This document shows, one piece after another, positions 1 through 13,377 of a stretch of DNA of 64,000 nt. The notes under the pieces are model-generated. The model was given only the letters and a program-made list of their open reading frames with translations, ran no database searches and was not told the origin of the DNA. A program made the position numbers and the translations under genes. Numbering within the stretch: position 1 is the first letter of the stretch; the number at the start of each line of letters is the position of its first letter. Source of the stretch: a virus (lineage: Duplodnaviria > Caudoviricetes); IMG/VR virus record IMGVR_UViG_3300017722_005389. One strand, written 5' to 3'.

Positions 1-25
1 TTTTAACTTTTTAAATTTTTAACTT

Positions 26-2969: not shown

Positions 2970-3608
2970 TTATTTCTTAGGCTTGGTCTTAGTCCCACTT
3001 GGCTTAGTTTTTTCCTCCTGTCCAGCTTCAGGTTCATTCTGAAGGGATGTAGATTTGTCCAAGTAATTAAAAATTTGTTTTCTTTTGGATTTGATAAAGC
3101 TTGTGAGGATGGAATCAGATTTTCCATTGATGGCTGAGAAGTTCTCAAGGATTGATATGATGTATTCGGTCATAATATAGATGACCAGGATATTGTGTAG
3201 GGTATAGAAGAAGTACTCAGTAATTTCCGAAAGAACATCTGGGTTGTCAACATAAGAAAGATAGAAGCTGTTGGTAACGAGTAATAGTCCAAGCCAAACA
3301 AAAATTTTAAGTCCGAATCTACTAAACTTTCTGCTGACGATTGGAATTCCTTTTACTACACTGGCACAAAGTCCTGTTATTAGTTCTAGGATTGCTGCAA
3401 AAATAAATCCAACGATAGCCATTGAAGATAGTCCAAGCCAAATTTCCAACGTAGCAAAGATGGAAAAGCTAAGGATCGAGAATGGGAGTGTGAATAGAAG
3501 TAACTTTGGGTGGACAAGAGAGTTAAAGAAGTCCGAAAGGTTTGCAAAGCCAAATTGGTGGACAAACAGATCGAGCTGGGATTCAATAATGGAGATGAGT
3601 GGTTTCAT
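2970..3608 (-). CDS. phage holin family (Phage_holin_4_1-like) membrane protein
   Basis: Several TM segments; ELITGL..S...I.SRKF.R..K and EYIISILENF motifs; start moved to MKPLIS, behind a TATTTATA motif. Confidence 0.65.
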   Translation of the reverse strand: MKPLISIIESQLDLFVHQFGFANLSDFFNSLVHPKLLLFTLPFSILSFSIFATLEIWLGLSSMAIVGFIFAAILELITGLCASVVKGIPIVSRKFSRFGLKIFVWLGLLLVTNSFYLSYVDNPDVLSEITEYFFYTLHNILVIYIMTEYIISILENFSAINGKSDSILTSFIKSKRKQIFNYLDKSTSLQNEPEAGQEEKTKPSGTKTKPKK

Positions 3609-11803: not shown

Positions 11804-12121
11804 CTAAAGTACAAAACAAGGTACTGAAACTATATGTCCAGCTTCATTTCTTACAACAGCTGGATGTCCAGTTGCAGGTGCAAGACAATCAGTTCTCCCT
11901 TGAAGCTTTGCAGCTGTCAGAACCACTGCTGAAACTATAAAGAAAGTTCCCTCTGCTGAATCGGGCAGGTCTTGAACTGTCCCAAACACTTGGGAACAAA
12001 TTCCGTTTTCTATTTCAGAGAATGTCGCAGAAACTCTTGCAACAGTCCCAGATTTTACAAATACTGTCCCATCGTTGAAAACGATATCGTGTGGGGTGCA
12101 ATTGATGAATGTAGCAGTCAT
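11804..12121 (-). CDS. conserved phage hypothetical protein
   Basis: INCTPH.I...SG.VARV and IVS..V...R.D.L.P...VR..G.I pattern, recalled from phage proteins. Confidence 0.7.
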   Translation of the reverse strand: MTATFINCTPHDIVFNDGTVFVKSGTVARVSATFSEIENGICSQVFGTVQDLPDSAEGTFFIVSAVVLTAAKLQGRTDCLAPATGHPAVVRNEAGHIVSVPCFVL

Positions 12122-12304
12122 AGTAGTAAAGATTTAAATGTTAATAAAATTTTTCAATGCTGCTTTGCCTGCAATGGGTTTAGTGTGAAAAAATACGGGC
12201 TTTAGGGTTTCCCACTCCCTTTTTTTTTATTTTATAAACAAAATCCCGATTTTTTCTTTGACTTCTTTATATTCACGAAATAGTCTTTTTAGTTTTAAAA
12301 AATA

Positions 12305-12800
12305 AATTGGTGGCGTATTAATTATTTCACGCCTTAACTCCCAATATCTATCAATTAGTTTATCCATTCAATTTTCTTTTTGCTTCAAACAAATCAAACA
12401 TTTGCTCTCCAGTTAGCGATAATGTAATCCTGCAGCCATCTGTATGAGTGCCTGTTATTTCATCTTCCCTCTGCACTCAGTTGTAATACTAAATAATGCT
12501 TGTATTTCTACACACTATTCATTAGAAGGTTTTCGTTTTATACCTCATAGATTACAACTGCTCACCCTTGGGAACTGATTAACTTACATACTCAAGGTTG
12601 TCATCCTTGTACTGTTCCTGAAGACTTTACAGGTTTCACATTATGTAATTCATTCTGACTTGTGTAACAGTCTTATTAATCAGGTAGTTTCACATCTTAA
12701 TAAGACATTCACTACTTTAAGTGAGTTGTGGTGCATTAAAAAGAGCAGTTTGTCTACATGCTCAGATATACGCAGAATATCAATGCCTTTCTATGTTCTT
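12305..12800 (-). ncRNA. large structured ncRNA candidate (~500 nt)
   Basis: No ORF of 60 aa or more. Many helices: GGCGT/ACGCC, GAGTGC/GCACTC, CAGTTGTAAT/ATTACAACTG (12478-87/12551-60), TGTA-GAAA-TACA, CAAGG/CCTTG, CCTG/CAGG, GTCTTATTAA/TTAATAAGAC (12670-79/12697-706), GAGCA/TGCTC. Strand inferred from neighbours and the GAAA loop. Confidence 0.55.
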
Positions 12801-12911
12801 TAATAAATTATTGCGCATTAAAATTGCAGAACCTAATCTTTCAATTTTAGTGTGAAAAAAAAGGGGGCAAATGCCAAAGGGAAATCGCCCCCCACTTCAC
12901 TAATTAAAACA

Positions 12912-13238
12912 CTATATGGATGGAACTAAATTGCTTTTTAATACCTCTTGGATTCTTTCAACAACTTCCTTAGAATTTCCTCCAACATTCCAATGGGTTA
13001 TTTTTGTTTTGGCTGTACCCTCTCTGCCAAGATAATTTTTGCCGTTCTTCCAATTATAGATGGTGGCAACAGTACCATCTTCGAATTGAATATACCATTC
13101 AGCATCGGTCTTATATCCCTCGTCTGATTGTGGTTTTCCGAAAATCTTTTTAAGTAAGCTGTACTCCGCATCAATGTAACCTTGAAAATGAGTTCCATTG
13201 ACATCAATGTTTGACTTATTGTGTGTTACGAATTTCAT
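12912..13238 (-). CDS. conserved phage hypothetical protein
   Basis: GTHFQGYI...FGKP...KTDAEW...ATIYNWK...WNVGG. Confidence 0.75.
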   Translation of the reverse strand: MKFVTHNKSNIDVNGTHFQGYIDAEYSLLKKIFGKPQSDEGYKTDAEWYIQFEDGTVATIYNWKNGKNYLGREGTAKTKITHWNVGGNSKEVVERIQEVLKSNLVPSI

Positions 13239-13377
13239 AAGAAAATAAAATTTAATAGTGAGTGAATTAAACGACCTTACAAAGATACAACTTACATTTG
13301 GCATTTCAAAATTTTTCTTTAGAAAAAAACAAGGGCTTCAAAACTTTTTTTGCTTTCTAATGAAGCCCTTGTATATT

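Follow-up and report, generated by a model that had tools for sequence, protein, structure and literature searches.

We analysed a 64,000-nt stretch of DNA, here called the window, from the IMG/VR virus record IMGVR_UViG_3300017722_005389 (Duplodnaviria; Caudoviricetes). The window looks like part of a large Bacteroidota phage from lake metagenomes, and its genes include those for a GP88-like protein, ParB, helicases, HNH endonucleases and an anti-restriction protein. Small genes on the minus strand form an array at ~2–27.6 kb, with a hairpin-promoter motif repeated between them. Two neighbours in this array, which encode 130 and 105 amino acids (aa), are separated by a gap of 790 nt. The subject of this study is a structured RNA on the minus strand of that gap, which is carried by a ~665-nt cassette and resembles the self-cleaving ribozyme twister. 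A sequence-only reading of positions 12305–12800 had proposed a densely paired noncoding RNA of ~500 nt, either ROOL-like or new. In the direction of the minus strand, the locus contains:

12912–13304, minus: 130-aa array gene, upstream of the cassette
12848–12900, minus: intrinsic terminator of the 130-aa gene, a G/C hairpin followed by U8 (−22.5 kcal/mol, z −3.8)
12179–12860, minus: insertion (cassette) of ~665 nt plus two 15-nt direct repeats, missing from near-identical contigs
12740–12794, minus: two-hairpin module, 80–95% identical in six other contigs (L213, L142, L125, L210, L178 and L185)
12463–12742, minus: whole long-form RNA element of 280 nt, with the two strands of P1 as its outer ends, supported by model match, consensus core and fold
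12360–12476, minus: 38-aa open reading frame (ORF) with a GTG start
12227–12367, minus: conserved 46-aa gene, MDKLIDRYWELRREIINTPPIYF..., the cargo of the cassette, starting 96 nt after the RNA element
12179–12219, minus: terminator-like hairpin of the cassette itself
11804–12121, minus: 105-aa array gene, downstream of the cassette

In three near-identical IMG/VR contigs (L001, L002 and L004), the 130-aa and 105-aa genes are spaced by 128–129 nt, as against the 790 nt in the window, and the flanks are 90–97% identical to the window on both sides. A 21-nt junction in these relatives aligns with both ends of the insertion. On the plus strand the insertion is bounded by the 15-nt repeat TTTAGTGTGAAAAAA, at 12179–12193 and 12846–12860, and these are its only two exact copies in the window. 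The first copy is the tail of the upstream terminator, UUUUUUCACACUAAA (12860–12846), and this terminator is also present in all three relatives. The second copy is held in the tail of the cassette-end hairpin, GUA-UUUUUUCACACUAAA; that hairpin, GGGAGUGGGAAACCCUAAAGCCC (12219–12197), was read from the sequence and is weak (−8.5 kcal/mol, z −0.6). Most likely, the cassette recombined into the early-gene array at the terminator tail. The minus strand of the cassette carries, in order, the hairpin module (12794–12740), the RNA (12742–12463), the 46-aa gene (12367–12227) and its own terminator. It is a mosaic, with the hairpin module, the RNA and the ORF module each nearest to different phages, and this mosaic origin of the parts suggests an insertion in the window phage and not a deletion in its relatives. 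Six metagenome contigs of the same phage (L070–L075) carry the insert at 99.9% identity, differing only by one substitution in one contig, within the upstream 130-aa gene, and by the length of an A9/A10 run; they give no diversity for comparative analysis. No paralogues of the insert were found in the window or in 62 related loci, and neither the gap nor a conserved stretch of 6.5 kb matched any DNA of the GenBank phage collection. The presence/absence polymorphism between near-identical phages offers a natural isogenic comparison for the effect of a 5′ ribozyme on a phage gene.

Several features that had drawn attention to 12305–12800 are borne out. Its base composition is more balanced than that of the usual array spacers (GC 0.34–0.37 compared with 0.22–0.29), the array hairpin-promoter motif is missing, with no copy between 9263 and 13881, and a G/C terminator, that of the 130-aa gene, stands just upstream. 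Also present are two perfect 10-bp stems (12478–87/12551–60 and 12670–79/12697–706), the pairs GAGTGC/GCACTC and GAGCA/TGCTC, and the hairpin TGTA-GAAA-TACA, which reads thus on the minus strand. The stretch is ORF-free in the sense that no ORF of at least 60 aa lies in 12122–12911, but the conserved 46-aa ORF (12367–12227, minus) overlaps its low end. Two perfect 10-mer stems within 120 nt have a shuffle mean of 0.15 (P about 0.03), and two or more such stems also occur in 26% of 666-nt tiles of this hairpin-rich window. The dense fold itself was not recovered: over 12305–12800 the folding energy was no better than that of dinucleotide shuffles (z −0.21 on the plus strand and −1.47 on the minus strand). 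By the measure that the sequence-only reading had set, this was an apparent refutation, and it was reversed by the comparative evidence.

Relatives were first reached by a degenerate-word scan using the plus-strand pseudo-translation of 12423–12575, which led to the loci L076 and L077. These match the window over 117 nt (12468–12582) at 91% identity with two single-base indels, and they share with it a 24-nt exact match at 12676–12699. A 19-mer from this exact match (block B) occurs in 31 IMG/VR contigs and a 22-mer pattern (block C) in at least 119; the first exact 27-mer had no IMG/VR match. Among ~186,000 prokaryote species genomes, the 19-mer was found in only 3 small contigs of metagenome-assembled genomes. 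Overall, the family spans more than 150 IMG/VR phage contigs and is almost absent from the prokaryote genomes. We collected 149 elements, 117 of them unique, with lengths of 69–435 nt (median 170 nt; most between 69 and 250 nt). The unique members comprise 71 short forms and 46 long forms (~40%), the latter distinguished by an extra domain between CUCAC and UCCCAAGG.

The short form reads U/AAUGCA-CC-AYAA-CUCAC-UUCCCAAGG-GUGAG-CAGUUGUAA-(variable arm)-UUACAACUG-AG-UGCA-GA-GGG, and the bases outside both ends pair with each other. In the window copy, which is a long form, all three core blocks equal the family consensus and the parts are placed as follows:

12737–12742, minus: P1 5′ strand UUUU (12742–12739) and the predicted scissile bond U12738/A12737, positioned by the twister descriptor
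12721–12735, minus: P2 5′ strand UGCA (12735–12732), CC (12731–12730), ACAA and P4 5′ strand CUCAC (12725–12721); 95–100% paired, with compensatory changes
12575–12720, minus: accessory domain, between the P4 5′ strand and loop L4, in long-form members only
12715–12712 and 12687–12684, minus: helix Hx, GUAG/CUAC; GUAG/CUAC in 22 members and GUGG/CCAC in 13
12708–12702 and 12698–12692, minus: small hairpin H1, in the minimum-energy fold of the window copy
12683–12675 and 12583–12575, minus: helix H2, CUGAUUAAU/GUUAAUCAG, enclosing a 91-nt variable arm
12561–12574, minus: loop L4, UUCCCAAGG (12574–12566), and P4 3′ strand GUGAG (12565–12561)
12478–12560, minus: P5 stem, with base CAGUUGUAAU (12560–12551)/AUUACAACUG (12487–12478) and a variable two-hairpin arm
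12463–12477, minus: A12477-G12476, P2 3′ strand UGCA (12475–12472), G12471 (candidate general base), A12470, GGG (12469–12467) and P1 3′ strand AAGA (12466–12463)

The L4 CCC pairs with GGG (12469–12467), and the L4 GG can pair with CC (12731–12730). The secondary structure, including both pseudoknots, was written by hand and evaluated on an alignment (A3) of 46 short forms from which the window was excluded. In A3, 91% of cells are paired, compared with 32–45% when the partners are slid, and both partners have changed in 13 pairs; not one shuffle in 500 reached any of these measures. All six P1 pairs covary, and P1 has a mean of 2.20 contiguous pairs compared with 1.12 ± 0.09 for shuffled partners, a difference of about 11 standard deviations. 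The P2 helix UGCA/UGCA is 100% paired, with a C-G to U-A change in 5 members, and the P4 helix CUCAC/GUGAG is 99.6% paired, with its closing pair changed from C-G to U-A in 10 members. The base of P5 is paired in 98% of cells and has the compensated variants CAAUUGUAA/UUACAAUUG and CAAUUAUAA/UUAUAAUUG. The CCC:GGG pseudoknot is paired in 99.3% of cells, with one double change from C-G to A-U (L113). The CC strand can pair with the L4 GG in 110 of 116 members in a register assumed after solved structures, with two U-G variants and no double changes. The base before the predicted cut is U in 104 of 118 members, each of the next two positions is A in 115 of 116, the positions of G-A-GGG are each conserved in 110–115 of 116, and the G preceding A-GGG is present in 114 of 116.

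A covariance model (R1) built from A3, and thus from 46 other phages, matched the window at 12459–12598 on the minus strand with 63.7 bits (E 3.6e-14). R1 had no other match in the window below E 2.6, so that the element is single-copy in the 64 kb. The unconstrained fold of 12746–12459 contains P1, P2, P4, Hx, the small H1, H2 and P5, the helices of the family, and its energy of −70.9 kcal/mol compares with −55.8 ± 4.1 for shuffles (z −3.64; 0 of 200 shuffles as good). Conservation ends at 12794 and 12463. Thus, a conserved, structured, phage-associated RNA with covarying relatives does lie here, as had been proposed; the structured unit is the minus-strand segment 12463–12742 and not the ~500 nt first suggested, its family measures 69–435 nt, and it is not ROOL-like. 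From the helices originally listed, two are conserved in relatives, namely 12478–87/12551–60 as the base of P5 and GAGCA/TGCTC as a P0-like hairpin, and the GAAA-capped hairpin sits in the variable P5 arm.

The accessory domain of the long forms ranges from ~60 to 290 nt. Its conserved core is UAAGAUGUGAAACUAC; it carries the conserved blocks GURGAUAUAAAGACUUCUUA ... UAAGAUGUGAAACYAC-CUGAUUAA and has three covarying helices. Full compensation is seen at H2, for example in AAUAACUA/UAGUUAUU, and among the long forms the helix CUGAUUAA/UUAAUCAG has fully compensated variants. It is conceivable, if rather unlikely, that this domain is a sensor or protein-binding module that gates L4 docking, which would make the family a natural allosteric twister ribozyme with which phages switch the expression of mobile cassettes of accessory genes.

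The twister ribozyme, for which PMC6154101 and bioRxiv 10.1101/2024.07.11.603121 cite Roth et al. 2014, has the stems P1, P2 and P4, two pseudoknots formed by loop L4, and the auxiliary stems P0, P3 and P5 (PMC6154101; bioRxiv 10.1101/2024.07.11.603121). Its P4/L4 consensus is CCGG-UCCCAAGC-CCGG, and its descriptor specifies an 'NA' cleavage site, an 'NC' for a 2-bp pseudoknot 1, a 3′ 'GRG' for pseudoknot 2, a general-acid A and a general-base G (bioRxiv 10.1101/2024.07.11.603121). Each of these descriptor elements has a counterpart at the expected place in the phage family, that of pseudoknot 1 being a candidate pairing in an assumed register, and hardly any member deviates at the A and G that are candidates for catalysis. 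The family L4, UUCCCAAGG, agrees with the twister consensus UCCCAAGC at 7 of 8 positions. The likeness is closest to type P1 (twister-P1, Rfam RF03160, so named in bioRxiv 10.1101/2024.07.11.603121), with which the family shares the order P0, P1, U/A-A, P2, a candidate 2-nt pseudoknot strand, P4 with UCCCAAG-N, P5, P2′, G-A-GGG and P1′. As in twister, CCC of the loop and the 3′ GGG are paired, P1 varies and is missing from some members, and the element is linked to phage genes. The family differs from twister in that its L4 ends in G and not C, with CC as the partner strand; in that P5 is present in every member, with a 9–10-bp base conserved in sequence, whereas ~1% of twisters have P5 (PMC6154101); and in the accessory domain that ~40% of members carry between the P4 5′ strand and L4. 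On this evidence, we assign 12742–12463 on the minus strand, with a probability of roughly 0.7, to a large phage-specific family of twister-type RNAs; it is of type P1, has a P0-like hairpin, the P5 that all members share and, as a long form, the accessory domain, and is carried on a mosaic cassette. Catalysis by this family is probable; twister itself cleaves at a specific site, leaving a 2′,3′-cyclic phosphate and a 5′ hydroxyl.

Several observations weigh against this assignment. The Rfam 15 twister models, at E up to 10, gave no match in the window or in the short members L199 and L113, which include one of 125 nt and one of 69 nt scanned within 131 nt; nor did they match, at E up to 5, eight long-form loci. 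The obligatory P5 insertion and the different stems may explain these misses. An accessory domain on the 5′ side of L4 has, to our knowledge, not been described for twister, and in that place it could hinder docking. The pseudoknots barely vary, CCC:GGG having one double change and CC:GG none; the collection by exact words from conserved blocks inflates conservation and limits pseudoknot variation. The L4 and pseudoknot register is in part one that we take to be shared with the Osa-1-4 structure. In the window copy, P1 is only 4 bp (UUUU/AAGA), and two helices specific to this copy compete with conserved ones: 12706–12697/12679–12670, which rivals H1 and H2 and does not appear in the minimum-energy fold, and GAGUGC (12478–12473)/GCACUC (12452–12447). 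Finally, the cassette lies directly behind a strong terminator without a recognisable promoter and may be poorly transcribed.

The co-orientation of the elements with downstream genes, the lack of relation among those genes, the missing array promoter and the position after a terminator make read-through followed by cleavage the simplest model of function. RNA polymerase reading through the upstream terminator would transcribe the cassette, which has no promoter motif of its own. The RNA would fold, with L4 docking through the pseudoknots CCC:GGG and GG:CC, and would cut itself between U12738 and A12737, a position that we take from the twister descriptor. The cut would detach the upstream message and leave the downstream RNA with a 5′ hydroxyl and a compact folded 5′ end. 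In this way, the 46-aa gene 96 nt downstream may gain a defined 5′ end that is independent of its context, with a corresponding effect on its expression. Across the family, the element has the same orientation as the downstream genes in 81 of 84 cases, an ATG follows 30–49 nt behind it in 26 of 94, and the downstream genes fall into 50 clusters among 56, which fits a general role in transcript processing. Indeed, phage and bacterial ribozymes have been suggested to process polycistronic RNA (PMC6765202; PMC10085705), and what self-cleaving ribozymes do in phages and bacteria, a question on which this family touches, has long been open. It is also conceivable, if rather unlikely, that hairpin module, ribozyme, cargo gene and terminator together are a mobile unit, passed among unrelated phages through recombination at the tails of terminators.

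Among the alternatives, the one that survives best, which we nevertheless regard as unlikely, is a conserved structured leader RNA that folds like twister and does not cleave. Such a leader would bind a protein or ligand, or would stabilise the message or modulate its translation, and the accessory domain would be its functional centre. It would account for the failure of the Rfam twister models to recognise any member, for a sequence conservation of the P5 base, H2 and the accessory blocks beyond what pairing alone requires, and for the ATG that follows the element at 30–49 nt in 26 of 94 cases. However, the family is most invariant at the positions that twister uses for catalysis (A in 115 and G in 114 of 116), and the short form has no parts besides the twister-like core and P5. 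The mutually unrelated downstream genes likewise argue against a gene-specific regulator.

It is improbable that the ~665 nt are a passenger remnant, that is, recombination debris or a decaying cassette that is no longer transcribed or active. Decay could be read from the V1 arm of the accessory domain, which in the window copy is cut to a 3-nt loop, from the mismatch in the first upstream hairpin, from the mosaic make-up of an insert whose parts are nearest to different phages, and from its place behind a strong terminator without the array promoter motif. Against this, every core position of the window copy matches the consensus, and its minimum-energy fold has lost none of the helices. The 46-aa ORF retains its start codon, stop codon and terminator, and the six contigs of the same phage all carry the insert at 99.9% identity.

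An ornate ~500-nt RNA like ROOL or GOLLD, or a group I/II intron, OLE or HEARO, is very improbable. The stretch is ORF-poor, hairpin-rich, phage-borne and from a lake, and some relatives have a tRNA close downstream; ROOL and GOLLD are likewise phage-associated noncoding RNAs with many helices, known for GOLLD from lakes and sometimes found near tRNAs. The models of these classes gave no match in the window (Rfam 15, E up to 10) and none in the relatives. In addition, conservation stops at 12794 and 12463, most members, at 69–250 nt, are too small, the flanks are exons of no gene, and the core is a ribozyme-like three-way junction with pseudoknots that resembles ROOL or GOLLD in neither sequence nor structure. 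Hardly credible, too, is a decayed or recoded protein-coding gene on the plus strand, for although one frame there has only three stops in ~170 codons and the Joint Genome Institute annotation calls a 119-aa gene in L072, that call needs read-through of TGA, each of the three stops is a different codon, single-base indels separate the relatives inside the conserved part, the translation has no homologue and a high content of Cys, Ser and Leu, and conservation takes the form of blocks and compensatory pairs and not of codons.

We also compared the twister-type family with other ribozymes. Twister-sister ribozymes are not known to form the double pseudoknot and cleave the other strand of the internal loop. 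They resemble the family in having a multi-stem junction, some twister-like loop nucleotides and a location near phage-related genes, but the family keeps the CCC:GGG pseudoknot, compensated once, and has no match to the twister-sister model (Weinberg et al. 2015; Rfam RF02681). The hammerhead was rejected because it needs CUGANGA and GAAA between three stems, where the family junctions read CAYAA, none and A, and because Rfam gave no match. Layouts like that of the hepatitis delta virus ribozyme and the theta layout were rejected by hand comparison of junction sequences and topology, and a group I/II intron by the lack of an Rfam match, the size of most members and flanks that are unconserved and join no ORF. 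Ribozymes of the hammerhead and twister types have been described between small genes in phage and prophage operons (PMC10085705, PMC6765202). The present element is similarly intergenic and co-oriented among small early or accessory genes, and would similarly cut transcripts into defined messages. It differs from those operons in occurring as a single copy in the 64-kb window (1–2 per related contig) and not in series, and in belonging to an inserted cassette that has a cargo gene and a terminator of its own. Rfam scans of the window, L076/L077, the eight long-form loci and two short members returned only tRNAs and chance matches, and a literature search found no description of this twister variant. 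The result is a large, well-delimited phage RNA family undetected by the standard catalogue, and the sequences collected form a set for extending the Rfam twister models.

Within the collection, some contigs (L112, L130, L162 and L199) have two elements 275–720 nt apart, and L199 and L207 have paired hairpins of the GGCUACUUCAGCAAU...AGUAGCC type ahead of the twister-type element. A riboswitch was rejected as a candidate because the downstream genes fall into so many unrelated clusters. A tRNA-linked element or tRNA intron was also rejected, since a same-strand tRNA lies within 600 nt downstream in only 5 of 132 cases, four of which are records of one locus. A tRNA whose anticodon, UUA, would decode the stop codon UAA was seen in L076 (1745–1822) and L077 (2825–2902) and also in L080 and L095. 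This tRNA shares the strand of the element and follows it at a distance of 103 nt, in phage contigs of 65 kb and 142 kb, and those phages may recode the stop codon. At the window gap itself, stop-codon recoding was rejected because no frame opens on reassigning any single stop. In L078, on a 24.6-kb viral contig, ARAGORN predicts a transfer-messenger RNA (3076–3464, plus strand; tag APKAVELRLAA) ~1 kb from the twister-type element.

The two-hairpin module upstream of the RNA was found both with and without a ribozyme behind it and is therefore an independent unit. Its first hairpin, GNNG-UGAUAUU-CNNC, covaries (GCAG/CUGC, GUAG/CUAC and GACG/CGUC) and is weakened in the window copy by a mismatch. 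The second hairpin, GAGCA-loop-UGCUC (12764–12744; −6.8 kcal/mol, z −2.2), leads into the U-run of the P1 5′ strand, and it occupies the position of P0 in twister. The module may be a terminator, or an RNA may have its 3′ end there. A recurrent motif, UCAAGGRUUGCAACCUUGUGAGAGUAC, was seen at ~30 loci (e.g. L203, L207, L210 and L213) on the same strand as the twister-type element, usually 60–400 nt upstream of it; a diverged copy lies at 12610–12587 on the minus strand of the window. The motif looks like the 3′ terminus of a further conserved RNA module, one outside Rfam.

The 46-aa ORF of the cassette is, by its conservation, evidently a real gene. It has two homologue clusters among 1.84 billion representatives (E 8e-18 and 2e-13) and no Pfam or PHROG match. 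A 124-nt module (12244–12367, minus), which encodes a 42–46-aa protein with the motif NTPPIYF, recurs in other phage-like contigs. It is 97.6% identical in six unrelated ones (L063–L068), which carry YqaJ, HNH, DUF3127 and NinG genes and whose flanks share nothing with the window phage around the module, and 77% identical in L069, where five consecutive codons, over TPPIY, have changed synonymously. The module thus looks like a recent exchange of a tiny gene between phages. The 38-aa ORF, whose start codon lies inside the P2 3′ strand of the ribozyme, is probably not a gene. It had no Pfam, PHROG or phage-collection match, exact look-up of its literal V-first translation returned nothing, and it is recorded only as a gene call, with GTG read as M, in contigs of the same phage; the DNA at 12368–12460 is not conserved in other contigs. 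A tblastn search of the GenBank phage collection with either small ORF (46 aa or 38 aa) gave no match. On the opposite strand, the public 119-aa gene call in L072 (2723–3134, equal to window plus-strand 12444–12855), with its TGA read-through, is an artefact that masks the RNA in annotations.

Two observations concern the rest of the window. The product of the 105-aa gene (11804–12121, minus) aligns solely to the C-terminal part of two PHROG families, covering positions 97–206 of 329 and 127–235 of 237, and may be a stand-alone domain or the product of a truncated gene. ARAGORN predicted no tRNA anywhere in the window; the Rfam tRNA model matched 287–383 on the plus strand with 37.3 bits, over 97 nt for a 71-position model, which could mean a tRNA that carries an insertion or else a tRNA-like element.

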